Part shown: piece after piece, positions 41,761 to 63,871 of the stretch
How positions within the stretch are numbered: position 1 is the first letter of the stretch
Layout: each line of letters starts with the position of its first letter
Source of the DNA: Cenococcum geophilum
Lineage: Eukaryota
Direction: 5' to 3'
Assembly (NCBI GenBank): GCA_050273025.1
Contig: CP158635.1
Span: forward strand, 9,238,001 to 9,302,000
DNA length: 64,000 nucleotides
Program-made: the position numbers and the translations under genes
The notes under the pieces: model-generated
Database searches by the model: none
What the model saw: only the letters and a program-made list of their open reading frames with translations
Told to the model about the DNA's origin: nothing

Positions 41761-41999
41761 GTAGTCGCTTTTATTTAATACTATCTATTCTATAAAGCGC
41801 GTATATTGTTTTAGCCGCTACTTCTTATCTAGACTTATACTACGTTAATAATTATATTAATTAAGACTAATATAATACTTTATACTTAAACAACTTTCTT
41901 AAAGAAGGAACTTATATTGCGTTATTATATAGAAGCTAGGGTAAATAGCAAAAGCGGCTAAGCTAGTATAGAACTTATAATATATAATATAATAATAAA

Positions 42000-42321
42000 C
42001 CTATATAAAACTATATAGGACTATATAAGATTATACAAGATTATATAAAATTATTTTAATCCTAATATATATTATAAGCTAGTATACTATAGGCTAAGAA
42101 AATAGTAAATTTTTATTTGCGTAATTAGTATATAACTTTAAAATAATATATTATATTACCTTAATTGCATATTAAGGAATATGCAGTTAGCTTTTAAAGT
42201 TATTAAGTAGGTTAACTGCGTATTATTTAACTTTTAAATATATTAAGTTGGTTAATTATATATTAAGTTTGTTAAGTTATATATTAAGTTGGTCAATTGC
42301 ATATTAATTATACGAAACGCG
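42000..42321. repeat. Subterminal short tandem repeats at the presumed 3' end of the Plavaka element
   Basis: ~10-bp units (ATTATATAAG-like) at 42000-42055 and ~20-bp units (ATATTAAGTTGGTCAATTGC-like) at ~42165-42310, ending ACGAAACGCG. Confidence 0.55.
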
Positions 42322-43900
42322 CTAAACAAAGTCTACTTAAATCTTATCCCTGAATATTTTCCTAATAAACTAGGGCTTTTCTTTTTTAGATTATTAGTGC
42401 AGTTATTACCCTACTTATTTTTCTAATAGAATTTACCTCTAGAGAAGTTTTCTTTTAACCTCTTAAAGTATTCCCGTAAAGGTGCCGGATAGGTATTAAG
42501 TTAACCCTAAAAGTCTTTCCTATTGCTTAAAATCCCTAACTTTAACCCATTAAAAGTTTTCTTTAAGAACGGCTTCTTTAAATGTTAGGTTTACCCTATA
42601 TTACTACTAAAGTGCCTATACTTTTAGTAATCCCTTAACTTTTTACAAGAAGAGGTTTAGTTCCTTACCGTATTCTTAGTATTTAGAACCGCTTGTTTAA
42701 AATCTATATATATAGTAATCCGTAGTAGGGCTCCTACGCGCTTTATTTTGTTATAAATTACTAGCTTAATTCTAGCCTAAATAAACCTAATCTTCTCCTT
42801 CTTATAAACGCTACCTTCCCTATTTCCAAAGGGCTTTAAATCTATCTATTAAGTATAAGTTTCTATAAAGTTTATAAACTAGCGGAAGTCTTAATAGTCT
42901 AACTATATACCATTCTAGGATTGTTCTATAATTGTTATATTATATAATATATAGATTTTAGGTCTAATCCTTTAGGAAGGTCTATAGCTATAGCTATATA
43001 ATAATTTACTCTTTATTAAGTTAATTAAGTGCGATTTAGTTTAGCGATCGGTTTTTAATATTATCAATAATCCAGTATATACGTTCTTCGGTATTATCTT
43101 ATATTATTAGCATCTTAAAAAGTTGTCTACCTTATAAACCTAATTATCTAGCTATTAGGCGTTAGGTTTATCACAAAGTTCTATATTATTAAAGGCCTTA
43201 GCTAGTTAGTTTATATCCTTTTTCCATTTATTATATAAATGCCTCTCTAAGTTTTCTATACCGATTTAGGTAGGTACTAGGTAGCCCCTAAAAAGCCCTT
43301 AGCCTTAGCTAGGTTATAAAAGTATTTATTTAGCCTAAATTAAACTTTACTAAATATAGATTTGCCCTTAAATGGTTCTAATATATTTATTAGTAGCTTC
43401 CTCCTATATAGCTTCTAAGAGCCTTATAACGGCTTCCTAATATCTATCTTAAAAAAGATTGGTATAGGGCTTTTAACCTTTTAAACTTAGGCCTAAGGAA
43501 GCTCTTTTTATAGAGGTAATATTAGCACTAATAACTAGTGTGGGTTTCCTAATAAGCCTTAGGTCTTAAGTTAGTGTTTAAGTTAGGTTTTTTTAAAGGG
43601 GTAGCCCTACTTAGCCTATAAGTAGTTTATATACCGCTACTATGCTAATTATAGGCTAGTGGTCTTCTAAGAGGGTTCTAGTTAGGTCCCTAGTTAGACG
43701 TATTAATATATTTCTTTCGCATTTCTAGCTTAAGGGAAGATCTTAAAGTTATCTTTAGCGCTTAATATTTTAATTGGCCTAGGTGGAATTATTCGGCCGT
43801 CTTACCTAGAGGTTTATATTATTGTAATCTCTTACTATTAAAGGGGCCTTCTTGCCTTAGCGTAACGGCTTTCTATAAGGTGTCTATAGAGTTTCTATTT
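42322..43900 (-). pseudogene. Unidentified RIP-degenerate coding relic
   Basis: The minus strand gives protein-like stretches whose stops are mostly RIP-type (e.g. IENLERHLYNKWKKDI..LAKAF; ARRSPTTDY.IYRF.TSGSKY.EYGKEL). I do not recognise the family. Confidence 0.35.
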
Positions 43901-44896
43901 AGGTTATTATAAGATTTTTAAAGGAGGATAGTAGATATAAATAAAAGATATAAATTAATAATCTAGTCCTTAAGCTAGCTGTCCTTTTAAATAAAGTAAA
44001 AAGTATTTAAATATAAGGGGACTTTATAAATAAGGGGCTATAAAAACACGATTATAGAATATAATACATTAGTAAGAGAGACGAATTCTTAAAAAGGTAA
44101 GGCCTCTAGAATTATAGAGACTATATACTATAGGCATATACCTTTAGCACGTAACCAGTAACTATTTAAGGGGTATCTAAGGGTTGTTTTAAGGGCAACC
44201 TAAGGTAACCGTATGTTATAGGACACCCCTATAATACCTTATATATATCCACCTATTTCCACTAACTTAGCAATTAGAGATTAACTGCGAAATAGCAATC
44301 TAATAGCAATCTAACGGCAACCTATGGCATTCTGCTATATTCTACTAAGTTCTGCTAGGACTATAACCTAAACCCTATCCTACCCTATATACGTATTAAC
44401 TAAATAACTACCTAAATATATATGGTGGTGGGAATGTATCTATTTTTAGGGGTTATTAGCCGCCGCTTTTGGCGGCGTTCTCACCTCGCTTAGACCCTAT
44501 CACATCGCCGCTTTAAAGAAGCTCTATTTACTTAAGTACTTCCTATTCCTATTATACCCCGTCTATTATTCTAGAGGGGTTAGAAATAGAACATAAGCTT
44601 TAATAAAGCTTATCGGCGCTTGCATTAATTTAATATAGTACAGCCTATATAAAAAAGCTAGCGTCTACTTAAAGAAATAGCCTACTCGCCTTCTCCCCGC
44701 ACTTCCTCCCTTTACTATCCTTATTCTACTTCCTCTCCTACAATTTAATCCTTATCTATAATGCTTACCTTACCTATTTAGTAAACTCGCCGTCGCTAAA
44801 ATAGTAGTATACCTATTAAAGTAGCTACTCCGGCTCACAGGACAGAGAGGGGGGGGGGGCACTTTACGCCGCCGCCGTTTATTAAAACTTAAATTT

Positions 44897-47385
44897 ATAA
44901 CTCTAAAGTCCAGACTTGGATATAAACACTAATCTAGATATATATATTCGTTTAGAAGATAGTATAGATTTAGATTTTAGAGAACTAGATACGGAATTAG
45001 ATATAAAATTAGATACGGAATTAGATGCGGAGTTTAATATAGAGTTAAATACGGGATTAGATATAGAATTAGACTCTAAAGCTAAGAAAATACTAAAAGA
45101 TATTACTAAATTAGAAGAGGAGGGACCCATAAAACTGAACCATACTTCTTATACTAAGAAACTATAAAAAAGAAAAGGCGAAATCTAGGAGATATAAATT
45201 ATAAAAATTTCCGCTAACTCATTATTATACCCTCTAATTACTATAAACTAGGTACTGCCTAAAGATTAAAAAGAAAACTAAAAAAAACCGCAGACGATTA
45301 GCTGCGTAAATACGCCCCAATAGTGTTTAAAGTATATCTTTACTGGCAAAAGAGAAATTTTTAAATTAAGAAGGAGAGCTTAATATAAAGCTATTAGAAA
45401 TAAATTAGCATATACTATATAGACCTTACACGCCATTAGATAGACAGTAATATCCTTAATAATGTTTATAATATAAGTTCCTATCCTTCCTTTAAGGTAG
45501 GCTAACAGCTATAAAAGTAGATCCTAAGCCTTAAGCTTAACAAGTTATAAAAGGAAAAGTACGCTATATTTATTTAAGACCTTTATACTATCCTCCACGC
45601 TCTTTAGATTAACAAGACTAAGCCACTCTATAGCTTTATTTAAGTCTAGATTTCGCTTCTTCTCCCACTTAGTATAGCTATAGCTATAAGACCAAGCGCT
45701 TTAGTAGAAAGCGCTAGTACTAAAGGCAGTAATAAAGCCGTCTGGTTTAAGAATATTAACATTATAATTATTCGCAGTAAGAAACACTCTAATAAAAGTA
45801 CAGTTATAGTAAATATAAACCTAGAATATATTAAGAATAAAGAAAAGGATAGTAAACCGTAAGCTTTATACTATATCTAAATAATATATCCTACTAACTA
45901 TAAATCTATAGAAAGAAATTTACCTTCCGTCTAAAAGACCTTCCTATATTCTATATTATTTCGCATATCTTAGCTATTAGCGTTAGTTAAAACGCATTCT
46001 AAGATAACTTTACGAGTATTTAAGACATCTTTAACCTTAAGGTACTGGCGCACCGTAATATACTATATATTAGGTAAAAGGACAAAGTACTAGATTAGCT
46101 ATTCTTCTACGACGTTAGCCATATAACTAGGGGTGGCAATATTATAAAAAAAAGGCCTTTCTATACGCCTAAGGCTTATTACTAGGTTTAAGGAGGCACT
46201 AGAGCTATACTAGCTACGACGGGCTTTAGGTAAAAACATTAACGGTAGGTCCGCTTAATAATTACCTTTAGACCTAGTTATATATTAATTATATAGATAG
46301 ACACTCTTACTCTAGAAAAGCGGAACTAGACTATAGGCTATCTTAGTAGTATATATAAGAGATATTATATACTAACGTATATTGTAAGCGATTACTAAAG
46401 CATCTATTTTGGAAGTCCTTTATAGAATCTCCTTATTAAATCTATCGCGAGAATAGGGCTGTTATAAGATCAATAAGCGCCTACAAAGCTTAATAACAAC
46501 CAGCTAAAAGAAGTCCGTAATAACCTTAAGCTTAAAGCGCTTTATAATAAATAAGAAAAATATAAAAACCATATCTATAATAAAGGCCTCTACCCTATTA
46601 CCAAGGCTAAAGGCACTAAATTATACCGGTAATATAAAGAGACTAAGCGGAATATTAGTATAACGTATTAAAGGTTGCAGAGGGAACAATTAATAACCGC
46701 TATTTATAAATTCTATAACTTAATTAACATAATTAAGATAGCCAGGCAACTTAGTAAAAAGGGCCCAAATAAGGTATTAACACTACTAAGGGTGGAATTT
46801 AAACTTTAAGAGCGGGCTACTATTACTAAAATACTCTTTACACCTTTTAAAACTAAAAAAGCCTAGGTTAAGTTTATTAAAAACCTAGCTTAACTATATT
46901 ATTAATAAGAAACGGCTTAACGCAAACCTTTAAAATAGAAGAAAATAGACTTTATTACCTTTAAAAGCGAGAAAATATCTTACGTGTAAAAGCAAAAGGA
47001 TATCAGTTTTAAAAGTACCTTAAATTACCAAACTCCCAACTATATATCCCTAAAGGAAGAGTCACCAAATAATAAAGATTATGGGACTATTTAATAAGAG
47101 CTTAGTACTTCAGACGCCGCTAAAGCTAAAACTATTTAGTTATACCCTATAGAGCTTTCCTACCTAGTATACCTTATTTATATAGGCAATAATAGGTTCT
47201 TATATAAAAAACGGATACGCTATATACCGTAAAAAGACGTCCTAAAGAAGCACGTAGATACCTATTTTTAACGCCCCAAATATTAAAAAGAGTTTTAATA
47301 TTGTTACCCTAAATATTCTATTAAGCTAGATAGCATAATATATTTTAAAAGACATGCATATAATGCGTATAAAGTGTCTTACTAA
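44897..47385 (+). pseudogene. DUF3435 tyrosine recombinase (Starship 'captain'), RIP-inactivated, with several introns
   Basis: Acidic N-terminus is the ORF at 44916-45167. (R)V(Q)ISLLL.LS.A.A(T)RP(G)ALVES at ~45641-45712; ELY(Q)LRRA.G at 46202-46231; RN(Q)T(M)G(H)L(G)S(T)Y(E)RYY at 46321-46368; C-terminal C2H2-type region RKDVLKKH...HF...(H)FKRHA..A(H).V ending TAA at 47385. GT..AG introns at ~45859-45911 and ~46245-46300. Confidence 0.88.
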
Positions 47386-47631
47386 TATATATAGACTCCC
47401 CTCCGTTAGTATATATTATAAGGGGAACGCATTATTATTACTATCTCTATATTTAAGATAACGAGCGAAAGAAGATAGGAAGGGAAAAAGGGAGGAAGGT
47501 AATAGTAGGTAGCTCCTTCTCTCTTTAGTCATAGATTATATTATATTAAGAAGTTTTCCTTTAGAGAGAATTCTTAATTAGAAGGAGTGGTAAGGGAAGT
47601 AAAAGAGATAGGGGGTAACTTAGCCGCGAAA

Positions 47632-47766
47632 GTCTATAATAAGGTCCTCTTTATAGCAAAAGGCATTAGTATTACCACCTATTTACCATCTATTCGGCAC
47701 TTACTTATTACTTATAATAAGTAAACAGCTTATATATAACATTTATTACTTATCTAGTTCTTTATA
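47632..47766 (+). pseudogene. Ferric reductase (FRE/NOX-like) NAD(P)-binding C-terminal fragment
   Basis: Y(D)KVLF(M)AKGI(G)I(AAH)LPSIRHLL......TA(RVRR)L(S)L(VW)F after reverting G->A/C->T changes, matching the GxGI..hLP...RR.hhVW signature. Confidence 0.7.
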
Positions 47767-49016
47767 GGAATTTTAATTGCTAATAAGCCGGCAAACTTAA
47801 ATATATATTAGAAAGAAGAGCGGATTTATAACATAGCTAAAACCAGCCTTATAATATAATGTAAATATATACCGCCCAAATAAGCGGATTGCCTTTTTTA
47901 CTCTTATCTACTTCGTATTCCAATAGCCTTAAACGCCTTATAGTTCTCGTTCCAGGTTTTAAAATATCTTCCCCTTAAACTTTAAAAGTCCTATAGATCT
48001 TACTTTACGCCTTTAGCTTATGCTACCTTAGCCTTACAGCCCTATATATACTAGGTTAAGGGATAGTCGCTTATAAATTAGCTTCTAGTTTTTATACTTT
48101 AAAAATTCTATATATAGTTACCTGTCCTATATATCTATTATACTAAAGATATATTAGACGTATTAATTCGTTAATCGTAGTAATACTCTCGCACTATTAT
48201 AGGTATAATAAATATATAAGAGGATTTAAGTAGTAGAGAATAGTATAATAAGACACAATCTATATAAAAGAAAAAGGACATAAATATAAAAAAAATTTTA
48301 AGAGAAAATAAAAAAAAGCAATATTCTAGGAAACCTAGATGGCTTAACAGATATAAGAAGATTAACCTAGGGTTCGCTAGAAAGCCACATATATAGTTTA
48401 TAAAAATCCTATTTACCGCACATACAACCTTACTAAAAGGTAGCGCCGCACTTCCAAACTTACGCATACCCGTCTTACTATCAAAAACTATCGTTTTCCT
48501 AACTCCTAAGACCTAATTCTGCCTACCTAGCGAGCTAGAGGTAGACTTGTTCCCCTCATTACCCCCTTTTGTTCTGCGATAGAGGCCTTAGTAAAAGGGG
48601 TCCTAGCATATAAGCGAAGCACGGACAAGAACACTAAAACTACTACTACTACTACCACTAATACCAAAACTACAAAATATAGACTTTTCCTAGGTTTTTC
48701 TTCTATAGAAAGTAAAAGCCTAATAAAATAGGGGGTGTAGGTACTTTTCTATATCTCTTTTAGTCAGACTTTCCTTAATAAGAGGAGGATTGCCTTTAGG
48801 GCTTTTCTGCTAGCAAAAGCCTAACAAGTCCTCTTTTTAGTAGTTTTTTCTACTTCTAAAAGGAAAAGAAAATAACTACGCTAGTCTTTTTTAGCTAGTT
48901 TTTCTACTACCTTCTAGCCTAGTCTCCCTAGAAATCCTCTAGTAGGATTAGTAAGGAAAAAAGGTAAAAAAGGATTGTAAAAACTAGCAAGGCTTTTTGC
49001 CTAGTTTTTTACCTCT

Positions 49017-49227
49017 TATAACGGCGCTATCGCATATTACCTGCCAAATTCTGCCATATTCTACCGACCTGCGATTAACCCGCCTAAAGCTAGCGCCTTG
49101 GCGGCTCACCCTATATATTTGTTTATATCGGTCCTAGCGACCCCTTTTCCTTCTCTTTAGCTTAGTATCTTTGTAATACAGCATTCGTTCAAGCTTCGGT
49201 TTAAAGGCATTTATTTAAGCCGTGACA
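49017..49227 (+). repeat. 5' LTR of Gypsy B2
   Basis: Direct repeat of 54978-55188, ending GTGACA. Confidence 0.95.
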
Positions 49228-52200
49228 TTATACTAAGCTCTCCCTACCTTACCTAGGAAGGCCTTAATAATATCCCACCCTAAAGAAACTTCGTCTGCAA
49301 CGACGCATTGACGCGCTATACTTAGACACTAAAACAACTCTACATTGCCTGGGAAGGCCTAGATAATATCCCACCTTATAAGCTAAACAGGACTGGACCT
49401 ATACCCCCAGAATTGAAACTAAAGCATATAATACTAACGAACCTTAGGAAGCTAATGATGGCACCTAAAGCAAGCTTATTTAAGAGAGCTGCTTCTACCT
49501 AAGAGGAACCTAAGATCCAATTAGGATCAGAAATTGAAGATAATAATAATATCGTAGACATACGCGAGTAGATTCGCGCCCTTATAGCTAGCTAGGAAGC
49601 CGATTATCTTAAAGCGAGAAATATATAAGAGACCCTATAAGAGATCCTAGAAAGCCTTACAGCCCTATAAAATAGCCTAACTTCCCCTTCTTAAAGCCCT
49701 AGCTGACCTATTCACTCTACTAAATACGATACACTAGGGAGTATGGATATAATGACGAAGTAATTAAAGTCCGTTAAGCTCCCTAACCCCCTACCACTAT
49801 CTAATAGAATAGACCCTACCTTTAAGAATTAGAGGATTTAAGTATAAGGAAAGCTCCGCGTTAACCACAACTATTTCCTTTCTAAAGAAGCCAAAATGCT
49901 CTACCTCTTTAGTCGAACCACTAGGGACGCCTAACGGCACCTTTAAGCCAAGTTTAAGGACGACTCCCCTGTCCGATTTATATCTATTAATAAGATAATA
50001 CGGCACCTAGCGGCTATCTACGTTAACCCAAATAAAGTACGGGATGCCTATTATAACTATAATCACCTAATAATAAAACCAAACCAACCCTTTACCGAAT
50101 TCCAGACTTAATTCCTATACCTTACAGGAGAAGGCCAGGTTCCCCTTAAGAACTACCAATTAGACCTATACAATAAGCTAACAATCCAGCTATAAGAAAA
50201 GATCGCTATAACCTTAGATAACCTACCAACCTATAAAAGACTTATAGCTCGTTGCCTATTATTAGACTTAGAACTAAAGCGGATTAACGCCCACCCTAAT
50301 CAGCAGAAGCAACTCCGTAACAATTAGAACTCGCCAGCTACACCTATAAGAGCTAAAGCAGGAAGACAAGTTACGACTACTCTTATACCAAAGGCGGTTA
50401 TAACTACGTACTAGCAAGCCTCGCCCAACTAGCTACGTACCACGCCATAATACTCCAATTAACCCTACCTCGGCCACGTGCTTCAACTGTAATAAGTAAG
50501 GTCACTTTATTTCATCCTGCCCAGAGCTAAAGGATATAGGCGATATTAAGGAGATAGAGGAAGGAGAAATATCCAATAAGTCAGGAAAAGAAGAACCCTA
50601 GGGAAAGACTCCCCCCTAGGGTACCCTATCGATCTCAAAGAGATTAATCTTAGTCAGTTAATAGGTGGAAAGCATTTTACGGTTCTATATATAGTATCTT
50701 AAAATAAATATAGAGTTAATATAACCGCCCTTATTAACACTAAAGTAAATAGCTTCGCCTTTATAAATACTGCCTATATAAATAATGTTACCAAGTTTCT
50801 AAATACAGAAGCTATCCAACTAGAGAAGCCTATCTAGGTAAAGGGCTATAACGGCCAAGCCGGTTAGCCCGTTACCCATATCTTAAAGTTATATATCGCT
50901 CTTAACGGACAACGCTAATACGGCATCCCCTTTTATATCCTAGACCTAGGGTCCCACAATATAATCCTCAGACAAAAATAGATGTCCTATTTTAATATTT
51001 GGTTAAACATATAAAAAAGACGGTTTATCTAGCTAGAGGATAGACTAAGGTTACCCTCCTTTATTAGGGAGATCTAAACCGACCACAAGACACTAGCCGT
51101 AAGGGGTAACCCTACCTACTAGCAGGATGTCCGGGCCTATGACCTAGCCTTTACCTAAGAGGACGCCCGCCGCGAAGCTAGAAAGAACTCCATATTAACA
51201 AAGATACTCTCCTAAAGCGCTACATTTAAAGAGGACTCTACATATAGAAGCGGGACAGATAATAATATAGATAATATCCAAATCGCACAGATCTAACCGT
51301 TATAGAAAAGAACGTATCAATAGGATATAAGGGATAACCTCCAAAAGATACAATAGGAGCTAAAAGGAGTAACAATGACGCCAGTACCCCAGAAGTCCCT
51401 AAAGTCACATACGCCCCTATTGTCAGTCAACCCCCCTACCGTAGATATCGCCGCAATTAGCGCTATAGCGTTCCACTTCAATATATACCGGAAGAACAAT
51501 AAGGTCTTTATAACAAGCCTATATAAGATTAACCGAATTATTAATAATAGAGAGGAAAGGCCAGATAAGGAAACCAACGAGGAACTAGTTAAACGCCCCC
51601 TTCCTACCATTTATATAGGCTACAAGGATACATTCTTAAAGGCGGCCTTAAATAAGTTACCCCCCTACCGGACGTACAATTACAAGATTTAATTAGAGGC
51701 CAATAACTTACTAGGCTATAGCCCCCTCTACCATTAATTAATAGATAAGCTAAAAGCAATAAAGCAGTACTTAATTAACAACCTAAATAAAGTGTTTATT
51801 AAGCCAAGTCAAGCCCCTTTTACTTCCCCTATTCTATTTATAAAAAAGCCTAATAAAGGCCTTCATTTTTATATCGACTATTAAAAGCTAAACGCTATTA
51901 CTTAAAAGAACCGGTATCCTATTCCTTTAATTAATAAAACCCTTGCATATCTAAGCTAGGTAAAGATCTTTACCAAACTTAATATCCGCCAAGCTTTCCA
52001 CCAAATTAGGATAGACCCTATATCTAAAGATTTAATAACGTTCCATACCCGCTATAGTTCCTATAAATACAAAGTTCTTCCTTTTAGACTAATAAACGGA
52101 CCGGCTACGTACCAAAGGTATATAAATAACGTTCTTTTTAATTACCTTAACGAATTCTACACGGTATACCTAGACGACATTCTTATATACTTAGACAACG

Positions 52201-54977
52201 AACTTAAATATCAAGTTTATGTTAAGAAGGTCCTAGAGAGGCTACGGAACACAGGCTTATAAGTTAATATTAAGAAATACAAGTTTGGGGTAAAACATAT
52301 AAAATACCTCGGGTTTATCATAACTATAAAAGGAATTAAGGTCGACCCTAAAAAGATAGAGGCAATCTATAACTAAAAGCCCCCTTATATAGTAAAAGGA
52401 ATCCAGTCCTTCCTTAGTTTTTATAATTTCTACCACTAGTTTATCCATAACTACGGAATTATAGTAAAACCTCTTATATAACTAACTAGGAAGGGTACGC
52501 CTTTCGTCTTTAATAATAGCTATATAGAGGCCTTTAAAGAGGTAAAGGATTGGCTTATCTCTTCCCTAATCCTTCATCACTATAACCTAGACCTTAAATT
52601 AATGCTAGAAACAGACGCCTCTAATAGGGTCGTAGTAGGAATCCTATTATAGTTATATCTAGACGGTAAATAGTACCCTATAGCTTTCTTCTTAAAGATA
52701 ATAGACCTAGCTAAGTGTAACTATAAAGTACACAATAAAGAAATGCTAGCTATTATTTAATTACTCTTTTAATGGCGCGCAGAGCTTAAAGGTATAAACT
52801 CCCGGATTAAGATATATACAGATTATAAAGCCCTAGAGTACTTTATAACTATAAAGCAGCTTATAGAGCGATAAGCCTAGTAGGCTAAAATACTCTTCTA
52901 ATTCTTCTTTATAATTATATATCGTTCTAGCAAGTAAAACTCTAAGGCTAATACCCTAACCCGAAGAGAATAAGATGTAGGACCCTAGGATAAGCTAAAG
53001 ACCTAATATCGGACGCGCGCCCTCCTCTATCCAGAACAGCTCGACCCGCGGATCCTTAAGGAGCTAGACTCCTAGTAAAACGAGCTAGCACCAATAGAGG
53101 AGTCCTTAGATAAGCTAATAGGGCTAATTAACCGCCTCCTAACTATAAACCGCACAGCTAATGCTCTAAGGGCCCTCCGCGAATAAGCCGCGAAAGGAGA
53201 CCCCAATTTTAAGATAAAGGAAGGATTACTCCTATACCAGGAGCGGCTTATAGTCCCTAATATTAACAATCTACGGACCAAACTAATCCGCGAAGCTTAT
53301 TACCAAGTCTCTATAGCACACCCTAGTAAGAACAAGACCCGTAAAATTATTAACTGCCGCTACTACTAGCCAAGAATGGTTGCGGATATCAATTAATATA
53401 TATAAAACTGCGAAGACTACTAAAGAGCTATAATCCCACGGAATAAGACCCTAAAACTACTTAAGCCACTCCTAATACTAGAGCGCCCTTAGCAGTATAT
53501 CTTTATAAACTTCTATAAACTACCTAGGGACCGTAACGGATACAATATAGTTATAGTTATAGTTAACCGCTTTAGTAAACGCCCGTTCTTAATTCCATAT
53601 CATAAGAACATTAATACTAAAGAGGCAGCCTAGCTATATATCTATTACGTCTACCAAATCTACGGACTACCAGATACTATTATATCCAATTATAGGCTAT
53701 AGTTTATATCGGCCTTCTAAAATAAGTTTACCTAAATCCTAGACATTAAGCTAAAGCTTTCTACGGCTTATTACCCCCAGACAGACAGTTAGACAGAGAT
53801 CGTAAATCAGTACCTAGACTAGAGGCTTAGGCCCTTTATTAACTATTTCCAGAATAACTGGTCTAAATTACTACCCTTAATAGACTACGCGCAAGCAACC
53901 CTACCCCATAACTCCACAGGGTTTGCCCCAATTTAGCTAGAAATGGGATACTTACCCCGTATAAGCTTTAACTAGAAAAGGCCAGAAGAACCCCAGACTA
54001 TACAAGAGAAGCTATCCTATGCTAAGGCCTAACAGTACGCCAAACAATTGAAGGAGGCCTAGATGGTAGCCTATAAAAACCTAGAAAAAGCTCAGAGGTT
54101 AATAGAACAGCAGGCGAATAAACACCGTCAAGAGCCCGATTTTGCCCCTAGCAATATAGTCTAGGTTATAATAAGGAATTAGAGGACCGAATAACCTAGC
54201 TATAAGCTAGACTACCAGATAGCAGGACCGTATAAGGTTCTTAAGAAGATAGGCAACTTATATAAGATAAAGCTCCCAGACTTAATTAGGGTTTACCCTA
54301 TCTTCTCGCCAGACAAGTTACGGAAAGCTGCAAACAACCTATTACCTAGACAAAAGAACAAGCCTCCCCTACCAGTTTAAGTAAACGGTAATAATAAATA
54401 GGAGGTTAATAAAATACTAGCCTATAAGATAGTACGGGGAGCGCTAAAATACCATATCTAATAAAAGGGCTACGATCCTAACCCAACCTAGTACCCTACG
54501 TGGAACTTTATAGGCTACCCCCAGAAGCTTAAAGAATTCTATAACTAATACCCTAATACGCCTGGACCCCTGAAGTACCTAGACAAATGGATGGAATGCT
54601 AGCATAATAAAGATAATAAGTTACTGGAAGAATATAGGGACAAAAACGCCCCAAAGCCCTAATACAGCTGTCTGCCAAATTCTGCCATATTCTACCATTT
54701 TCTACCAGTACCGTAAAATTTTAAATATCCAGGAACTTCGACCGCTGGTTAAAGTTATCTAATTAGTTAGATCCGTACCAAGACTTTTAACGGCTACTCT
54801 TTCTAGCCTAGTGCTTCCACTTAGCCCACAATCGCCCTTTATACTTAGTCAGGACGGACTCATATCCCCTTTATCTCCTCATCTTATATTTTTATAATCC
54901 TACATTTATAAGCCTAGTGCTACCCTATTTTTTCTAACTAAGCCTAAGGGCAGGCTTTTTTTCAAAGAGGGGGGTGA

Positions 54978-55188
54978 TGTAACGGCGCTATCGCACATTA
55001 CCTGCCAAATTCTGCCATATTCTACCGACCTGCGATTGGCCCGCCTAAAGCTAGCGCCTTGGCGGCTCACCCTACATATTTATTTACATCGGTCCTGGCG
55101 ACCCCTTTTCCTTCTCTTTAGCTTAGTATCTTCGTAATACAGCATTCGTTCAAGCTTCGGTTCAGAGGCATTTGTTTAAGTTGTGACA
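54978..55188 (+). repeat. 3' LTR of Gypsy B2
   Basis: Canonical TGTAAC...GTGACA termini; the least RIPed LTR copy. Confidence 0.95.
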
Positions 55189-58100
55189 CCTCTAGGACTA
55201 GGAGATAAGAGACCTAAGGAGGTTATTATCTACTGAAAAAACTAGGAAACCCCCCTATATAAAATGTTAAAGAATCCTTAGGCTACTAAGCCTAAAAAGC
55301 CTCCTAAAGACATTAATACAGAGACAAGTGATAACGAATTCACTTTCCCTTCCCCTCTTACTCCAGCCTATTTAGGATAGGAGAACCTTAGGCTACTAAG
55401 CCTTCTAGAGGTAAAGACACTATAGAGACAAGTAAGGATAAACTCTTAGCTATCTTACCTACCTTACCTACTTCACCTACCTTCTCTTCCTCTTCTTCCC
55501 CGCCCTCTCCCTGCCCATCTAGGGAGGACATAAAGAAAAAGAATAGAAGGAAAAGAAGGCAATCTTCTTCTAAAAATAGAAAAGAGAACCAAAACTAAAG
55601 AAGAAGGCTACTAATACCTAAGCCTATTTTGGCTAGTATACCTTTCTCTACCTCTTCTCTAAAACAGTACCTATAAATGGCTCTATATAACCTAAACCAG
55701 GCCTATATAGGGCTAAAAGAAGAAAAAGAAGAAAAAGAGCAAGTTAAATTACTAGGGGACTACGTACAGAGTGTCCTAGTAGGAGAAAATCCCTTTATAA
55801 AAGAAAAGGAAAGAAAGGAAAGAGATGTCCTAAAAGGACTAGTAGAAGAAGTAAGAGCTCTCTATAAGGAGGTAGCCCTAAAAACGTAAACCTATGCAGA
55901 GAAGCTAAAGAAGGGCCTCTCTTCTTCTACTTTTGCTCCTTCTTCTTCTACTACCTCTTCCTCTACTACCTTTTCCTCTCCCCCTCCCTCCTTATCTCCC
56001 CCTACTAGTTCTACTAGCTCTACCTCTACTAGAGGAAAAAAGAAGTAGTTATAAGAAAGGAGACTAGTCCTAGTTACAGACTAAAAGGACCAGCCTCTAG
56101 ATGTCTTCTCTCTACGAAATTAAGTCAATTAATTATTTATATCCAAACTGCAAATAGAGAAGCCAGTAATAGCTACCATAGCTAGAACTAGAGAAAAGCA
56201 GAATATTTTCCTTACAACTACAGAAGAATACGATGCAGAGTATTTAGTTAAATATAAGGAAATCTGGTCTAACTGCTTCTCTTTTAAAAGAGAATAAAAA
56301 CTAGAGCCCTAGGCTCAGGTAGTAGCTTATGGCGTCCCTATCTCCCCTTTCCTAGGAGAAGGAGGCTCTAAACTTCTAAAAGAAGAAATAGAGACTTTTA
56401 ATCCTATTAGAATATAGGGATTACCTAGATGGATCTTACCTAGGGAAAAGAGATATAATCCACAAACTAGGTTCGGCTCTATAGTCTTTGCTATAGAAAA
56501 TAAGGAGAAAAGACAGGAAATCTTTAAGTAGAAGGAAATCCTAATTGTAGGGGTAGCTGCTAAGGTAGTTAAATACCTAAAAGTCTCTCCTACTACACAG
56601 TGTATAAGTTGCTAAAAATTTGGCTATATAGGAGATAGATGCTCTACCAAGGCCTGTCGATTTTATGCAGCGGTATATTTATCTAAGGACCACTCCTGTT
56701 CTACTTGTAATATAATAGGAAGACCTTACGAGTATACTACCCCTCTTTGCAGCAATTGTAAAGAAAATCACTTTGCTAATAGCAAAGACTGCGAGTCTCT
56801 TAAAGCAGCTAAGCTAGTATATTAATGAGTATAAGCTTAGAAGGTTCTATATAGGAAGAAGAAGAGATCTCTCTAGTTTCTAAAACTAGGGGAGAAATCT
56901 CCTTTATACAATATAATGTAGGAAAAAGACAAGAAGTACAGCAAACCCTACTAGAAATAGGATTTAGGAAAAAAACAGATATTATTCTAGTATAAGAGCC
57001 TAGTACCTGGAAAGATAGACAAAAAAAATCCTACTTTTTTATTCCACATCCTACATTTAACCTAATCCTTTCCAGTAATCTAGCTATTTAACCTAGAGTA
57101 GCTATCTATATAAGGAAAACTACTTCCAGTATTCTATAATATAGAAATAGGGAGGATATCTGCAAAGATACAGATATTATAGTATTAGAAATCTATGGCC
57201 AACTTAAAAGATTTCTATTATTTAATATTTATAATAAGAGACAACTAGACGAAAACTCTAGAACCTAAAGAAGTAGTACAACTACTATCTCTAGGGCCAT
57301 TCTAGAACTGGAAATAGATCTCCCTTTTATACTAATAGGAGACTATAACCTATACCATAAACGGTGGAACGCGCTAGCTAGGAACCTAACTAGGGAGGCT
57401 AAAGAACTAGTAGACTGGCTAGACAAATATAACTGCTAACTACTAAATTTAGACAAATAGGAAGGGACCTTCTATAGATCTAATATAAGGGAAAAGTTTA
57501 TTATAGACCTAGCCTTCTATTCAGGAAACTTCTAAGAAAATACCTGGGATAACCGGACTATAATAAAAGAAACAGGATCTGATTATAAGACTATAGCATT
57601 CTCTCTATTTACTAGAGAGATGTAAAGATACCTAAACCCTCTTTAAGAAACTCCTTTCTCTATAAAAAAGGTAAACTAGGAGCTTTTCTCTACCTCTTTA
57701 AAAGAGCAAGTTCTAGAGCTAGAACTAAAAGCGAAACTTTTAGTACTAGAAAAACTAGTAGGAGAAAACCCCTATATAGAGATAGGAGAAAAAGGTTCCC
57801 TAGCCTCTCTAGAAGATTCCTATAGACCTAGGGATAGAAGCTTAAGTACACTAGTAGATAATCTAGTAATAGATCTTACTAGAGGTATAAAGCTAGTAGT
57901 AGAGAAAGCTATCCCTAGATCTAGAACCTACGAATTCTCTAAACTATGGTGGAATAAAGAGCTTCTAAAGAAAAGACAAAAATGGCAAAACTAGGAAGAC
58001 TTCAAGAAGAATAACCTACTAGGAGTTCTAGACTAGAAGCCTATAAAGAAGCTAAAAATCAATACTTCTACGCAATAAGAGAAGCCAAGACTAGCTGCTG

Positions 58101-60410
58101 GAATAGCTTCCTAGAAAAAGCATAAGAAAAGGAAGTCTTTACTGCCCTAAAATATATAAAGGAGAGAACATTGCGAATAATCCCTAGTCTATAGTATAGC
58201 AAAGACGGGACTACTAGACTAGTAAAAAGCTTTAAGGACTAGTACAAAGCTTTTACAACTACTCTATTCCCTAAACCCCCCCCCTCTACTAGCCCTATAG
58301 AGTGGAAGGATTATATAATAGACAATAAATGGGAATGGCTAGAACTAGAGAAAACAGAAGTTAAATAAGCAATTTTCTCTAGCTCTAATAAAAAGGCTCT
58401 AGGACTAGATGGGATATCTTTTAAAATTTTATAAAAGGCCTACCCTACTATAGAAGATCTTCTATATAGAATCTATAGGATTTTGTTTATCTTAGGCTAT
58501 TAGCCAAAGGTCTGGAGAGAAGCTTGAGGAGTTATTCTCCCTAAAGCAAATAAGGAGGACTATTCTTTACCAAAGTCCTATAGACCTATCTCCTTACTAA
58601 ACTGCCTAGGAAAGACTTTAGAAAAGATCTTTACTACTAGATTAGGATATCTAGCTAGTACTACTAGCTTACTTCAAGATTCTCAACTAGGAGGAAGAAG
58701 ATAGCGGTCTGCAATAGACGCAGTCTTATTACTTCTAAATAATATCCAATCTAAAAATAGTAGGAAAAAAGCTAGACAAAGGATAGCCACTATGTTATTC
58801 CTAGACGTAAGAGGGGCTTTTAACTATATCTCTAAAAACCAGCTTTTATCTATCTATAAGGAACTAGGACTACCTATAGCGTTTACATAATGGGTAGCTA
58901 CTTTCCTTAGCAATAGAAAGCTATAGCTCTCCTTTAATAGGCAAATATAAGAAAAAGTAGAACTAGAAACAGGGATACCATAGGGATCGCCTATATCCCC
59001 TATCTTATTTCTACTATATATACGCAATATCTGCAGCATATAAATAGAAGGAGCCTACTCTCTTAGCTATATGGACGATTTTGCAATTATAATTACCTTA
59101 AATTCAGCTAAGTCTAATTGTAAAAAGCTAGAGAGAATAGCGCTAGAGCTAATGTCTAAGGCTAAGGAAGCTGCTATTAGTTTCGACGTTAGCAAAACAG
59201 AGCTTATATACTTCTATAGTAAACGCACTACTATAGAAGAAGGGTTAAAGCTAGGAGACGTAGAAATATCTCCTAAACCCCTAGTTAGGTGGTTAGGGGT
59301 ATTTCTAAACTCTAAGCTTACTTTTAAACAATATATAGAAATACAAATCTCTAAAGCAAAAACAGCCTTCTATTTAATTAGAAGACTAGGTAATATATAA
59401 AGAGGTCTATCTCTATAAGCCCTACGACAGCTCTATATAGCTTGCGTCACCACTATAGCAGACTACGGTGTATAATGCTGGTGGAAAAGCAAATCTAGAG
59501 ACTACCTATTAGATAGGTACCAATCTCTACAAAATAAGGCCCTAAAACTAGTTCTAGAGATACTAGAATAGTGGAAAAACAACTAGCAGCAGAATAAGAA
59601 TAAAGGAAAACACTATACTAGGATCTGTAAAGGAAGCCATTTCTTTTCTCTTAAAGCCCCTAAGGATAAATATCCTAAAAGGCTATAATTGGCTTTCTTC
59701 CAGCTAAAGCTAGGAAAAGGCTATTTTAAATCCTTTACTAAAGTAATAGGAGAGGATAAAGAAGGTAGATGCTTTAGGGAATGTAGAGCACTACAAACCC
59801 CTAGACATTTACTACTAGACTGCAACCTATATAAGGAAGAAAGAAGAGAAATACGAAAGAAACTAGGCTCTTCTCTCTCTCTAAAGAAGCTATTTTGTAC
59901 ACAAAAAGGAAAAGAGGCGCTTTTTCTATTTCTAAGTAGGACAGGGATAGCTACTAGAAAGTAGCTAATAACAGCAGGATCTATAGGAGGTAACTCCTAC
60001 TAGGCTCCTAGAAAAGAGATATTAGTAAGCAAAAGGACAGAAATAAATTACAAAAGGACAGGGAAAGGCGTTAGGATTTCTTATTTCTTATAGTTTTCTA
60101 CCGTTTTCTCATTCCCTAGTAGTTGCTTGTAACTTAGTATTTTACTAAGGAACTGTAAACCCCTAGTTTAGGGGCTTATAAACTACTAGGACATAGTTAC
60201 TAGTACATGTTAAGCTGCCCTAAGGGATTTATATATATAGGACTATAGCGCCATAGCCTAGAGGCTGCATGCGTAGTATTGTACGTAGTATAATACAATG
60301 GATAAAAAAAATCCTATTTAACTCTAGGTAATAAAAACTAGTCAATACTAATAGAGGAGTAAGATATTAATTAGAGGCTTAAACTAAGTAGAATAAAGAG
60401 GATCTAAAAC

Positions 60411-61516
60411 TTAATAAAATTAGCTAGCAACTACAATAATAGTATAAATTGCCATAATAAGAACGCCTTTAAGCCAGTCTATTTTAGTATTAGTTATAAT
60501 AGATTACCTATATAAAAAGGAAAACTTACTAGATTTACTATTCTAGATAAGATAATTTACTAAGAGCACGGCAATAAACAAAACAGTAATTAGAAAAGTA
60601 TTAAAATAAAGCGTTATATAATTCTAGCCTATAATTTAACTAAGTATAATAATAAATAGGAGAACTAGAAGAGCGATTTATATACTAGATCCAATAGTAA
60701 TATTAATTACTAGATTTATTTTATCCTTATAAGCTACTATAACCACTATTATATACTCGGCAGCGTTCCTAATAATTAGGAGTAGGATAAGGCTAATAAA
60801 AGTAGTAGAGATAGTGCCGCTTGCCGTAATATTACTAATACTATTAACTATACACTTAAAACAAAAGGCGGCTAACGCAGTAAAGATTCTAAGGGTTATA
60901 ATTGCACCCTAGATCATTAATTAGGGCTCCTTAATCTTATTATCTTCCTTTTCTACGTTTAAATCCTACATAGGCTATTCTTGGTTTACTCCACCTCTAG
61001 ATATAGCCAACGCTCCAGCGCTAATCTATATAATACTATAAAGAGGTATACCCTACTTATAGGAGGACCTATACTTAGGAGCCCTTTAGCTTAGAGTATT
61101 ATACATTTTAGTATATAACTTTAATTAAAATATAAGGTAGCAAACGTATATAATTAAAAGGATAATAGCTATTCCATAGGAAAGCTCTAGATTAAGTATA
61201 GAGCTATTAGGGCTCGTAGCTGCGTAGGTTAATACCTATTATAGGTCTAAAGCTATTATTAAACTTACTTAATAGCGTAGAGTGGAAGGCGGTTAAAATA
61301 ATTAAACTACTAACGCATAGAGCTAGAAGACCGGCCGCAGTACCTGCTACTATTATATTAAAATGTTATTCCACCCAGTTAATACCTCTAAAAAAGAAGT
61401 ATATGCTAAGAATAAAGAGTAAGTTTAAAAGCATACTACTAATTAAGGAAGTTTTAACAATAGTAATCTAGCCCTTAGTTAGGGCTAAGATAGAGACAAT
61501 TAATTTAATAGCGTTT
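60411..61516 (-). pseudogene. VCX1: Vacuolar Ca2+/H+ exchanger (CAX family), RIP-inactivated, N-terminal exon(s) not found
   Basis: The minus strand de-RIP reads NA(VE)LIVSILAL...IVKTSLI(G)SML(S)NLL..L(GMC)FF.GIN(R)VE(Q)HFN, ELS(R)G(T)AIILL..Y..YL.F(Q)LK(SH), FI(G)LILL(P)I(VG)NAAE(H) (60753-60770), KDK(MD)L....IGSS(MQ)IAL.VL(P) and WL(E)GVL. Both CAX alpha-repeat signatures are present. Confidence 0.88.
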
Positions 61517-61637
61517 TTACGCTAACATCAGGAAATTTTTTTTGGGGCTCATTGTTGCGGTTTGCGGCAGGTGGATATAGTTAATAGCAATTTGCGTAAA
61601 ACGAACGTTTTATAACAAAATCGCAGCACCTAATAGC

Positions 61638-61815
61638 AAATTGCGGTAAAATACTACCCCTATAAATAAATTGCAGTAAAACGCTACCCTATAAATAAAT
61701 AGCGCGCAAACTATACAAATTATAAAAACTGTACGAATTATACGAATTGTAAAAACTGTATAAATTGTATAAATTGTAAAAACTGTACAAATTGCAACTA
61801 TATAAATTATAATTA
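61638..61815. repeat. Short tandem repeats (a ~30-bp duplication, then 9-bp TTGTACGAA-like units)
   Basis: AAATTGC(G/A)GTAAAA..CTACCCTATAAAT occurs twice, followed by repeated (C/T)TGTA(C/T/A)(G/A)AA. Confidence 0.75.
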
Positions 61816-61959
61816 TATTATATAATAACCAAATTATTATATATTTCCATAGATTTCTGTAGTATACTTTTAAATATATTTATATTATAACTATATAAAA
61901 TATAGAGCTATCTACTTTAGGCGTTAAGGGGGAAGCCTCTCGCAAAGGCTCTAAATCGT

Positions 61960-62238
61960 CTACCTACCTACCTGCCTGCCTACCTGCCTACCTACCTACC
62001 TACCTACCTGCCTACCTGCCTACCTGCCTGCCTGCCTACCTACCTACCTACCTGCCTACCTACCTGTCTACCTACCTACCTACCTACCTGCCTACCTGCC
62101 TACCTGCCTACCTGCCTACCTACTTACCTACCTACCTGTCTGTCCGTCCGTCTATACCTACCCATCTATGCCTACCTATCTATGCCTACCTGTCTATGCC
62201 TACCTGTTTGTGCCTACCTGTTTGTGCCTACCTGTCTA
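61960..62238. repeat. (CCTA/CCTG)n microsatellite grading into 12-bp TGCCTACCTGTC-like units
   Basis: Seen directly in the sequence. Confidence 0.95.
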
Positions 62239-62309
62239 TATCACCTTAATTCGATTAATCGATCGAATTGTTTATCGTGTTCGCTGGCTAGTCGTTCAAA
62301 CGGTTGTCG

Positions 62310-62820
62310 TGTGGCTCTAGCGACGGTTATATAGCAATAACGACGGTCATCTGGCTCTAACGGTCGTCTAGCTCTGGCGACGGTTATCTAGCTCTAACGA
62401 CGGTCGTCTAGCTCTGACGGTCGTCTAGCTCTAGCGACGGTCATCTAGCTCTAACGACGGTCGTCTGGCTCTGACGGTTATCTAGCTCTGGCGACGGTCA
62501 TCTGGCTCCGGCGACGGTCGTCCAGCTCTAACGACGGTCGTCTAGCTCTGACGACGGTCGTCTAGCTCTGACGACGGTCGTCTAGCTCTAGCGACGGTCA
62601 TCTGGCTCTGGCGACGGTCGTCTAGCTCTAACGACGGTCATCTAGCTCCGGCGACGGTCGTCTAGCTCTGGCGACGGTCGTCTAGCTCTAACGACGGTTA
62701 TCTGGCTCCGGCGACGGTCGTCTAGCTCTGACAACGGTCGTCTGGCTTTAACGGTCGTCTAGCTCTAGCGACGGTTATCTAGCTCCGGCAATAGTCGTCT
62801 GGCTTCAGTAACGGTCGTTT
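62310..62820. repeat. Minisatellite, 20-bp unit CTAGCTCTGGCGACGGTCGT with 17-bp variants, roughly 25 copies
   Basis: Seen directly; the variants are mostly C/T and G/A transitions. Confidence 0.95.
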
Positions 62821-63035: not shown

Positions 63036-63871
63036 AGGCTTTATGTAGAGCTTCGTATAAAGCCTCCGTACGCAGAGCTTCGCGCAGAGCCTTGTGTAGA
63101 GCTTTGTGTAGAGCTTCGTGCAGAGCCTCGTGCAGAGCCTTTATATGCAGAGCTTTGTGTAGAGCCTTATATAGAGCCTCGTGCAAAGCTTCGTGTAGAG
63201 CTTTGTGTAGAGCTTCGTATAGAGCTTCGTGCAAAGCTTCGTGTAGAGCTTTGTGTAGAGCTTCGTATAGAGCTTCGTGCAAAGCTTTATACAGAGCTTC
63301 GTACAGAGCTTTGTGTAAAGCCTTGTGCAGAGCTTCTATATATAGAGCTTTATATAGAGCCTCGTGTAGAGCCTTATGTAAAGCTTCGTGCAAAGCTTTG
63401 TGTAGAGCATTATGCAGAGCTTTGTATAGAGCTTCGTGTAGAGCTTTATGCAGAGCTTCGTGCAGAGCTTCGCGTAGAGCTTTATATAGAGCTTCGTGCA
63501 GAGCTTTATATAGAGCCTTATACAGAGCCTTAGTACGTAGAGCTTTGTATAGAGCCCGTAGAGCCTTATATAAAGCTTTATATAGAGCTTCGTGCAGAGC
63601 CTCGTGCAGAGCCTCTATATATAGAGCTTTATATAGAGCCTTGTGTAGAGCCTCGTGTAAAGCTTTGTATAGAGCTTCGTATAGAGCTTCGTGTAGAGCT
63701 TCGTGTAAAGCTTTATATAGAGCTTTGTGCAGAGCTTTGTATAGAGCTTTATATAGAGCCTCGTATAAAGCCTCGTGCAAAGCTTTATATAAAGCTTCGT
63801 ATAGAGCTTTATATAGAGCTTTATATAAAGCCTCTGTATATAGAGCTTTGTATAGAGCATCGTGCAAAGCT
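63036..63871. repeat. Minisatellite, 12-bp unit GTGCAGAGCTTC, roughly 65-70 copies
   Basis: Seen directly. It generates the low-complexity ORFs on both strands. Confidence 0.95.

Follow-up and report, generated by a model that had tools for sequence, protein, structure and literature searches.

The window analysed here, 64,000 nucleotides of Cenococcum geophilum contig CP158635.1, contains three gene relics between positions 44409 and 61525. The first is a DUF3435 tyrosine-recombinase (captain) pseudogene at 44976-47385 (+), which is inactivated by RIP and points into the element. Pfam DUF3435 (PF11917) clearly matches a stop-as-X reading at 46345-46761 (E 8e-20; score 71.6 bits, cut-off 25.8) and a second frame at 45575-46025 (E 0.0079). 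By tblastn, residues 122-847 of the 847-aa Pleosporales DUF3435 protein P0009 align to 44976-47382 in three frames with a summed E of ~3e-131. The closest intact relatives are DUF3435 proteins of Pleosporales, at 39-46% identity. The stop codon lies at 47383-47385, and 51 in-frame stops interrupt 767 aligned codons. A 53-nt intron (GTAAG...CTAAC...TAG) is placed at 45860-45912 by a switch of HSP frame at homolog residues 377/378, seen at the same position in the window and in sister loci. The tyrosine-recombinase motifs from which the first-pass annotation had recognized the gene are present: RPSA is aligned with RPGA of the homolog, LELY*LRRA follows in a shifted frame, and IGY...Y stands in place of MGH...Y, the MGH being mutated and the conserved Y residues following it. 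The catalytic residues of tyrosine recombinases are R...H-x-x-R...Y, and intact catalysis is excluded for the window copy because its captain is RIP-dead. In a de-RIP consensus of nine copies, GC rises from 0.32 to 0.49, captain identity to P0009 reaches 56-66%, and captain stops fall from 51 to 12. The literature yielded no match to the locus tag of one close homolog of the captain.

About 250 bp 3' of the captain lies a 5'-truncated remnant of ~70 residues (47596-47808, +) that resembles the NAD-binding domain of ferric reductases (FRE). A ferric-reductase fragment had been proposed here; the conserved piece is indeed present, and the FRE call itself stays below threshold. NAD_binding_6 is the sole Pfam match, both in the window (47635-47733; E 0.23; score 12 bits, cut-off 22.2) and in two sister ORFs (E 0.059 and 0.0074, again sub-threshold), covering profile positions 1-33 in the former and up to 49 in the latter. 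The remnant is 73% identical to P0139 over query residues 66-136. From the domain set of a ferric reductase (PF01794, PF08022 and PF08030), only the NAD_binding_6 part is found, and the sequence upstream has no space for the remaining domains. A phmmer search of 1.84 billion representatives returned three short ORFs alone and no full-length ferric reductase. At one locus (L026), a distant FRE-like relative from a related RIPed family directly follows a FAD_binding_8 match (E 1.1e-4). The piece is real as a conserved segment and weak as an FRE, and it is a homologous stump rather than a gene. It was already a stump of ~70 residues in the ancestor of the family.

The third relic is a RIP-inactivated pseudogene of a Vcx1-like Ca2+/H+ exchanger (CAX) on the reverse strand at 60387-61518. 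Pfam Na_Ca_ex matches its second repeat at 60423-60902 (E 2.1e-10), and comparison with yeast Vcx1 (4k1c) gives an E of 4.5e-22. These matches place it among the Vcx1 cation/H+ exchangers, which have two Na_Ca_ex repeats and a core of ~11 transmembrane segments. An intron lies near 61218-61263, and 361 aligned codons contain 17 stops. By tblastn, 61515-60387 matches residues 252-598 only of a 598-aa homolog, whereas sister copies keep residues 162-598. The gene is 5'-truncated in the window because this copy is broken at 61525. At 61525/61526 the element gives way to an unrelated high-copy, satellite-bearing repeat, and summed contig depth rises ~10-fold in the bin at 61393-62000. The breakpoint is exact in comparison with a 98%-identical locus (L019), and all sister copies lose similarity to the window at 61516-61525.

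Captain and CAX are separated by an 11.9-kb nested insertion foreign to the element. Self-blastn delimits a LINE, D2, at 48415-60306 (+), which ends in poly(A) and is itself split by an LTR retrotransposon, B2, at 49017-55188 (LTRs at 49019-49227 and 54980-55188). The LINE is bounded by a 13-14-nt target-site duplication, AAAAATCCTATTT, at 48402-48414 and 60307-60319, in agreement with the insert first delimited at 48416-60306. RVT_1 matches the insert at 51960-52262 (E 1.4e-18) and 59044-59400 (E 0.005). An LTR element with reverse transcriptase is thus upheld for B2; the verification stops there, and the Gypsy label given to it goes further. Locus L019 joins 48415 straight to 60307 with a 14-nt overlap, at 98.08% identity over 37533-48415 and 98.85% over 60307-61525, and therefore an orthologous locus exists without the LINE insert. 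The joint 48401 to 60307, with 14 nt common to both sides, occurs in contigs of runs X1 and X10, and the joint 49010 to 55188 is present in all four runs. A further joint from 44348 to 49074, present in a single contig of X1 and a single contig of X10 (side 20), proved too weak and was set aside. With the LINE insert removed, the captain stop codon is ~1.1 kb from the 3' end of CAX, as the first-pass annotation had described for its RIPed VCX1, and the element sequence proper in the window amounts to ~5.2 kb.

RIP has marked this sequence heavily. The element has a GC content of 0.30-0.31, a TpA/ApT ratio of 1.59-1.71 and a (CpA+TpG)/(ApC+GpT) ratio of 0.38-0.40, indices well past the usual thresholds. 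When the window copy is compared with 16 paralogs, 4965 mismatches are counted, and 4457 of them (89.8%) are transitions.

The arrangement is not confined to the window. The FRE stump served as bait for 29 related metagenome loci, each fetched with 10 kb on either side. Captain (+), FRE stump (+) and CAX (-) recur in the window's order and spacing at 16 of them, which bears out the expectation that the three genes co-occur in other copies. Five further loci hold two of the three genes, four of these being cut by contig ends, and the remaining eight are members of another FRE-like family that is more distantly related. Homology to the sister copies covers the window from 44380/44414 to 48414 and from 60307 to 61525. 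No intact copy is found among the 21 close loci (GC 0.22-0.36). With CAX and the FRE stump syntenic with the captain at differing genomic sites, the three relics are best taken as one mobile unit.

The 5' end of this unit can be placed from independent copies. It had been predicted at ~44370-44460, and in an alignment of 10 sequences from nine independent loci similarity vanishes upstream of 44409-44413. The terminus (44409-44450, +) includes the conserved block TAAATAYATGTGGTGGTGGG... from 44413, with the flank junction at ~44408/44409, and carries a small terminal inverted repeat, I3 (44411-44423 and 44438-44450). Matches of eight paralogs to the window start at 44380-44414. The left flanks of the nine loci are mutually unrelated, and eight of the nine have C at the junction position. 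The motif preceding the element is TTAC in two copies and TAAC in four; TACC, TATC and TTCC also occur. At two loci, L005 and L008, the element starts directly after TTAC and TTCC(T), and uninterrupted paralogs of the flanking repeats continue across the junction. Because such paralogs cross these junctions, the two copies can be read as insertions rather than duplications. The uninterrupted target at L005 reads TTAC, seven nucleotides and A.

The right end lies further out. Among sister copies, L001 is collinear with L017 from 769 to 13369 and with L008 as far as 11477, so that they run for at least 12.6 kb; no right end is reached before the fetched loci stop. Searches for an inverted copy of the 5' terminus, by a purine/pyrimidine pattern of the 29-nt terminus and by blastn-short of the first 100 nt of each copy against the locus it lies in, found none in the sequences searched and gave only chance-level matches of 9-15 nt. 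At L005 and L008, the target repeats that the element interrupts do not resume within the locus to mark a right junction. Copy-to-copy identity falls to 74-79% past L001 10480, and therefore the distal part (L001 10480-14202), which contains a relic of a FunK1-type kinase, might be common flank rather than element. Two candidate ends were rejected. A break at L005 18047, which looked unique and GC-normal, is a Harbinger-type insertion (DDE_Tnp_4, E 9.3e-15; Myb_DNA-bind_3), and a 7.3-kb unit ending at L019 14069 is contradicted by other copies that run on beyond it.

Taken together, these data make it probable, at roughly three chances in four, that 44409-61525 is a single dead copy of a Starship-type cargo transposon headed by a captain gene. 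Gene identities, synteny across copies, the common 5' end, RIP-type divergence and the nested insertion are established. The locus encodes a DUF3435-type tyrosine recombinase, identified by PF11917 and tblastn, and this gene is the first behind the 5' end at 44409-44413 and is transcribed inward, with its alignment beginning at 44976 (+). The captain, FRE fragment, CAX relic and insert reported by the first-pass annotation are confirmed by the DUF3435, Na_Ca_ex and self-blastn evidence, the FRE being the weak member. Its reading as one inactivated Starship survives as a dead Starship-type copy; it is not alone, being one of a family whose RIP-degraded copies number roughly in the tens. The term giant is not borne out by the size seen (at least 12.6 kb in sister copies, ~5.2 kb in the window), because no right boundary, terminal repeat or spanning empty site was found in the loci compared.

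Captain, FRE stump and CAX could instead be passengers, multiplied by segmental duplication or by another repeat rather than by the DUF3435 recombinase. Such a history would fit the failure to find a right terminus, TIR or terminal direct repeat in the sequences searched, and a copy number above the Starship norm. Three loci (L015, L016 and L017) share an identical 5' truncation at window position 47148, resembling duplication after damage, and L008 and L017 are 91% alike far rightward. Passengers would not be expected to begin at the same nucleotide or nucleotides in nine independent copies with unrelated left flanks, and at two of these the uninterrupted paralogous targets break exactly at the junction. 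An inward-facing recombinase first behind the 5' end is, moreover, the fixed layout of Starships as described in PMC9156397. This explanation is therefore considered unlikely.

Marginally less probable again is a compact tyrosine-recombinase transposon of ~13-20 kb and Crypton-like habit, which would have captured CAX and multiplied ordinarily without being a giant Starship. Tens of copies and a demonstrated length of only 12.6 kb speak for it, and within that length there are just the captain, one recognizable cargo gene of intact type and the stump. Cryptons are only a few kb long and are not known to carry cargo; the recombinase here is Pfam DUF3435 with its nearest relatives among Pleosporales DUF3435 proteins, and no copy ends inside the 12.6 kb. 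Chance adjacency of three unrelated relics in a repeat graveyard, suggested by a window that consists entirely of RIP-degraded repeat DNA, can be dismissed, since order, orientation and spacing recur at 16 of 29 loci and the 5' end is common.

For the Starship-type element, we infer recombinase-driven transposition, a target preference, a total size and an order of events. In the ancestor, the DUF3435 tyrosine recombinase would have come first among the genes, some hundreds of bases inside the 5' end and pointing inward, followed by the ferric-reductase stump next to it and then by the CAX Ca2+/H+ exchanger on the other strand. At least 7 kb of further sequence, visible in sister copies only, would have lain past CAX. 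The recombinase may have excised and rejoined the element as a single unit at short TTAC-like targets, often within other transposons, and such movement could have led to tens of copies per genome. RIP would then have struck every copy, because the element was repeated, leaving stop codons throughout captain and cargo. Later, a LINE would have inserted into the window copy and an LTR retrotransposon into the LINE, and the copy would have been broken within the CAX gene at 61525.

Copy number is approached through contig depth. In run X1, contig depths summed over the bins of captain and FRE come to 2112-4958, where single contigs have ~80-119; such depth is not itself a copy number. Ratios in X6, X7 and X10 are comparable. 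Single positions are covered by 15-35 distinct contigs. Contig depth in the four runs suggests tens of element copies per genome. More tentative is the proposal that a Starship lineage multiplied in a burst within a single genome, reaching tens of copies that were all later killed by RIP; the odds for it are a little short of even.

Several features of the family have precedents. Starships of the Pezizomycotina are described as invariably keeping their captain in the same position and orientation and as having FRE among their recurrent conserved cargo (PMC9156397), and the present family resembles them (PMC9156397, PMC11162782) in its inward DUF3435 gene placed first, its co-moving cargo, its FRE-type relic, its insertion into AT-rich or transposon sequence and its inactivation by RIP. 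It differs in that FRE is a stump only, in its demonstrated size of at least 12.6 kb, and in seemingly tens of copies per genome, where named Starships have 0-5 (Table 1 of PMC9156397) and are described with "low copy numbers" (PMC11162782). The starfish pipeline drops predictions below 15 kb (PMC11162782), and 12.6 kb falls under that filter with no end reached. No DUF3723, PLP or NLR gene was seen in the examined part of the element. RIP-dead Starship copies are termed derelict (PMC11162782), and such regions (PMC9156397, PMC11162782) share with the window a RIP-mutated captain and cargo that ORF-based annotation misses; here, in contrast, the whole family is derelict. Hephaestus-family elements, which have metal-ion cargo, target TTAC(N7)A (PMC11162782), and the present family resembles them in its target motif and in having an ion transporter as cargo; the present motif is degenerate, and an A at +8 is often expected in AT-rich DNA. 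VCX1 has been found in Starship-like cargo of Penicillium and Aspergillus (PMC12256816). The Vcx1-type gene is the shared feature; the present host belongs to another fungal class, and its gene is dead. The family is a Starship-type derelict, of a kind already known, and its copy number is its one unusual feature.

From raw sequence, RIP-dead Starship-type elements can be recognized and bounded even where gene prediction comes up empty. In the main text of the C. geophilum telomere-to-telomere assembly paper, "Starship" occurs in the reference list alone (PMC12910237), and therefore the element family seems undescribed in that text. Public C. geophilum gene models P0043, P0066, P0077, P0085 and P0018 appear to be RIP-degraded CAX or captain copies, which would inflate both gene families. 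If the proposed burst is true, it would surpass by an order of magnitude the number of copies recorded for any named Starship, and a compact element with a loose TTAC-like target in abundant AT-rich repeats might have helped it. Starships would then be a modest contributor to repeat expansion in this 178-Mb ectomycorrhizal genome, and the family would be a natural record of RIP capping Starship copy number. With tens of copies to draw on, the captain can be reconstructed well by de-RIP, which would permit its phylogenetic placement and a test of the interplay between copy number and RIP.

The putative Starship captain, a DUF3435 tyrosine recombinase, survives as a pseudogene damaged by repeat-induced point mutation (RIP) where the first-pass annotation had placed it. 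With stop codons taken as X, the stretch 46345-46761 gives a Pfam DUF3435 match (E 8e-20, 71.6 bits, cut-off 25.8), and a second frame matches weakly at 45575-46025. Residues 122-847 of P0009, an 847-residue Pleosporales DUF3435 protein, align by tblastn to 44976-47382 in three frames (summed E ~3e-131), with 51 stops in 767 aligned codons. A 53-nt intron at 45860-45912, with GTAAG, CTAAC, and TAG signals, accounts for one frame change, and the corresponding gap is present in sister copies. The recombinase motifs claimed for this gene are recognizable: RPSA aligns to RPGA, LELY*LRRA lies in a shifted frame, and IGY...Y stands opposite MGH...Y of the homolog. A word-indexed protein search with the captain returned 18 proteins, 17 of them DUF3435 proteins (E 5e-50 to 5e-33); 15 of these are from named Pleosporales (Pyrenophora, Alternaria, Bipolaris, and others), two lack an organism name, and the eighteenth protein is a Cenococcum geophilum model. 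Several sister-copy contigs (2-5 per run, all four sequencing runs) carry one more A than the window just after 46145, consistent with loss of 1 nt from the window copy; such a loss would account for the badly aligned, frame-shifted stretch at 46100-46290.

Second is a ferric reductase (FRE) fragment, the weakest of the three relics' identifications. A piece is present where the annotation put it, as a stump below the profile cut-off and not as a gene: the sole Pfam match on 47401-48414 is NAD_binding_6 at nt 47635-47733 (E 0.23, 12 bits, cut-off 22.2). No full-length ferric reductase was found by phmmer among 1.84 billion representatives; there were three short ORFs only (73, 37, and 74 aa). 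Two of these ORFs, P0139 and P0141, 73% and 52% identical to the window reading, likewise have NAD_binding_6 as their sole Pfam match, confined to the first positions of the profile and under its cut-off (E 0.059 and 0.0074). At the metagenome locus L026, a P0141-like stretch immediately follows a match to FAD_binding_8 (E 1.1e-4, 22.7 bits, cut-off 22), the order expected of a ferric reductase. The piece is most likely a ~70-residue stump of the FRE NAD-binding domain. Upstream of it there is no room for the remainder of the gene, and as a gene the piece does not qualify as a ferric reductase.

The third relic, a Vcx1-like Ca2+/H+ exchanger (CAX), had been read as a RIPed VCX1, and profile and structure searches agree. 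Pfam Na_Ca_ex matches lie on the minus strand at 60423-60902 (E 2.1e-10), and yeast Vcx1 (4k1c, E 4.5e-22) is the top match among solved structures. By tblastn, 61515-60387 aligns with no more of a 598-aa homolog than residues 252-598, and the 361 aligned codons contain 17 stops; in sister copies CAX extends to about residue 162 of the homolog, and the element continues.

The window is AT-rich end to end (GC mostly 0.26-0.41) and, by self-comparison, made up of nested repeats. These include two LTR element copies, B1 (interrupted, 5471-16894) and B2 (49017-55188), and two LINE copies, D1 (30848-37302) and D2 (48414-60319, split by B2); 44370-48413 and 60320-61900 have no second copy inside the window. 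A further LTR-bounded element at 19364-25353, with 236-nt repeats at 19364-19599 and 25118-25353, is 68-78% related to the B family in inverted orientation. The LINE/LTR insert proposed between FRE and CAX is borne out: the LINE body (48415-60306) has a 13-nt duplication on either side, D2 ends in poly(A) and gives a weak RVT_1 match (E 0.005), and B2 combines 209-bp LTRs with a reverse transcriptase (RVT_1, E 1.4e-18). Locus L019 is 98.08% identical to window 37533-48415 over 10,885 nt and runs directly on into 60307-61525 (98.85%); the two matches overlap by 14 nt, corresponding to the target duplication. By its sequence, L019 is the window's locus in another individual, before the LINE insertion. 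Because D2 and B2 (window 48415-60306 vs L019 10773-10786) are absent from this 98%-identical same-locus copy in a metagenome, their insertion is a recent polymorphism. The joint 48401 to 60307 also occurs in two X1 contigs and one X10 contig, and the joint 49010 to 55188, which marks LINE copies without B2, occurs in all four runs.

Evidence that the three relics form one unit comes from a metagenome scan baited with the FRE stump, which fetched 29 loci; in these, all three relics were then sought by tblastn. Sixteen loci share captain(+), FRE stump(+) ~220 bp past the captain stop, and CAX(-) ~600-800 bp beyond, the window's layout after LINE removal. This joint occurrence is decisive against the possibility that the three never co-occur. 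Five loci have two of the three relics, four of these being cut by contig ends; at L013, tblastn found no CAX within its 10 kb. The other eight loci (L020, L022-L024, L026-L029) contain a second, RIP-degraded, more distant FRE-like family (50-67% identity; for example L026 ~9700-10200), and neither captain nor CAX was found within 10 kb there. One of them, L029, shares a 103-kb contig with sister copy L001, ~76 kb away in the same orientation.

The left end is sharply defined. Eight paralogous copies begin matching the window at 44380-44414, and ten aligned sequences from nine independent loci have no similarity upstream of a conserved block, TAAATAYATGTGGTGGTGGG..., starting at 44413, inside the 44370-44460 interval proposed for the 5' end. 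The 400-nt left flanks are not common to different copies. At L005 and L008 the left flanks are repeats whose uninterrupted paralogs elsewhere run across the junction; the element directly follows ...CTTATTAC in L005 and ...ATTCC(T) in L008. These junctions argue for insertion events over block duplication. Duplication of a larger block is suggested for L015, L016, and L017, which share one identical 5' truncation point (window-equivalent 47148), as if a damaged copy had later been duplicated. Of the nine independent flanks, eight carry C at the junction position; in six the base before it is A, giving TAAC in four and TTAC in two. The uninterrupted L005 target is TTAC, seven bases, and A, the same as the TTAC(N7)A reported for Hephaestus-family Starships (PMC11162782), the final A being weak evidence in AT-rich DNA. 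The terminus also has an imperfect 13-nt inverted repeat (85% complementary, 14 nt apart, window 44411-44450) and a short GC-rich hairpin-like motif, CGCCGC...GCGGCG, near 44459-44478. Since both are retained in sister copies despite RIP, they could be a candidate recombinase-binding end.

On the right, the window and L019 part exactly at 61525|61526, and all sister copies lose window similarity at 61516-61525. Beyond 61525 the window has an unrelated high-copy repeat with ~tenfold higher summed depth and several satellite arrays: (CTAC)n at 61960-62137, a 20/60-nt array at 62306-62804 (GC ~0.52), and a 12-nt array at 63086-63858. At L016 and L017, arrays with weak similarity to these precede the element copies on their upstream side. 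The L019 sister copy is interrupted at 14069, and L005 at 18047 by a GC-normal Harbinger-type transposon (DDE_Tnp_4, E 9.3e-15). This Harbinger/PIF-type element (L005 18048-20210; DDE_Tnp_4 on the minus strand, Myb_DNA-bind_3 on the plus strand, E 7.4e-5) is apparently un-RIPed and is a candidate still-young transposon of this genome. Nested inserts aside, L003 and L005 follow L001 collinearly over its 769-10479; L001 10480-13369 is collinear with L017 (77-79%) and, to 11477, with L008 (74%). Because this latter collinearity ends only at the edge of the fetched locus, the shared sequence, as aligned, is at least 12.6 kb, the element's right end not reached; because identity drops over the last 3 kb, that part may instead be shared flank. 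At L001 13685-14176, ~13 kb into the sister copy, lies a protein kinase of fungal type with RIP damage (PF17667, E 1.2e-27), which may be cargo or flank. Pfam gave no match in L001 6101-13600, and the 5' terminus did not recur in inverted form in the window or sister loci. A 355-370-nt direct repeat (~80% identity) at L001 6617-6971 and 9665-10016, ~3 kb apart and also in L003, L005, L008, and L017, may represent the LTR pair of a small, old insertion.

RIP has marked the whole element. Its parts have TpA/ApT of 1.59-1.71 and (CpA+TpG)/(ApC+GpT) of 0.38-0.40; transitions make up 4457 of 4965 mismatches (89.8%) between the window copy and 16 paralogs, and 2681 of 2899 places over the whole examined stretch in X1. 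De-RIPing the captain, a check that had been proposed, gave a nine-copy consensus with GC raised from 0.32 to 0.49, P0009 identity from 39-46% to 56-66%, and stops reduced from 51 to 12, as descent of the copies from an intact captain gene would predict. Contig depth is not copy number and is read here only as an order of magnitude. Over the captain and FRE bins, summed depth was 2112-4958 in X1 (listed single contigs 80-119), 144-312 in X6 and 113-339 in X10 (nearly all listed contigs 6-11), and 237-667 in X7 (six of eight listed contigs 6-10, two at 43 and 58). At single positions, 15-35 distinct contigs overlap, and the close loci recovered by the FRE-stump scan number at least seven in one metagenome data set and at least eight in another. 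From summed depth the family is estimated at tens of copies in all four runs.

Taken together, the relics and their one-unit synteny largely bear out the proposed derelict Starship, a further element of an already known sort; the case for full membership is incomplete, lacking a right boundary, repeats, a size, and an empty site. In the literature, FRE, DUF3723, PLP, and NLR genes are recurrent Starship cargo, named Starships are listed with 0-5 copies, and degraded "Derelict" regions are described (PMC9156397); "derelict" is recommended for RIP-dead copies, low copy numbers are stated, predictions under 15 kb are filtered out, and some families target AT-rich DNA or transposons (PMC11162782). 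VCX1 is among the cargo of Starship-like regions (PMC12256816). Multiple Starship copies build up in some species, and RIP may cap accumulation (preprint 10.1101/2024.06.28.601215). Set beside these reports, it is an ordinary derelict Starship-type element, of unproven size, with copy number as its one unusual trait.

Among named proteins, Cenococcum geophilum gene models match the RIP-damaged readings best, so the window probably derives from this species or a close relative. Its recent complete-genome paper puts transposons at 78% and RIP-affected sequence at 73% of the genome, and in a term search of the main paper "Starship" occurs in the reference list only (PMC12910237). Four CAX models on four different large contigs (P0043, P0066, P0077, and P0085; "sodium/calcium exchanger", 293-385 aa) are 52-80% identical per aligned piece, and one DUF3435 model, P0018 ("hypothetical protein"), also matches. 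All five appear to have been predicted on other RIPed copies of the element, and are likely pseudogenes counted as genes.
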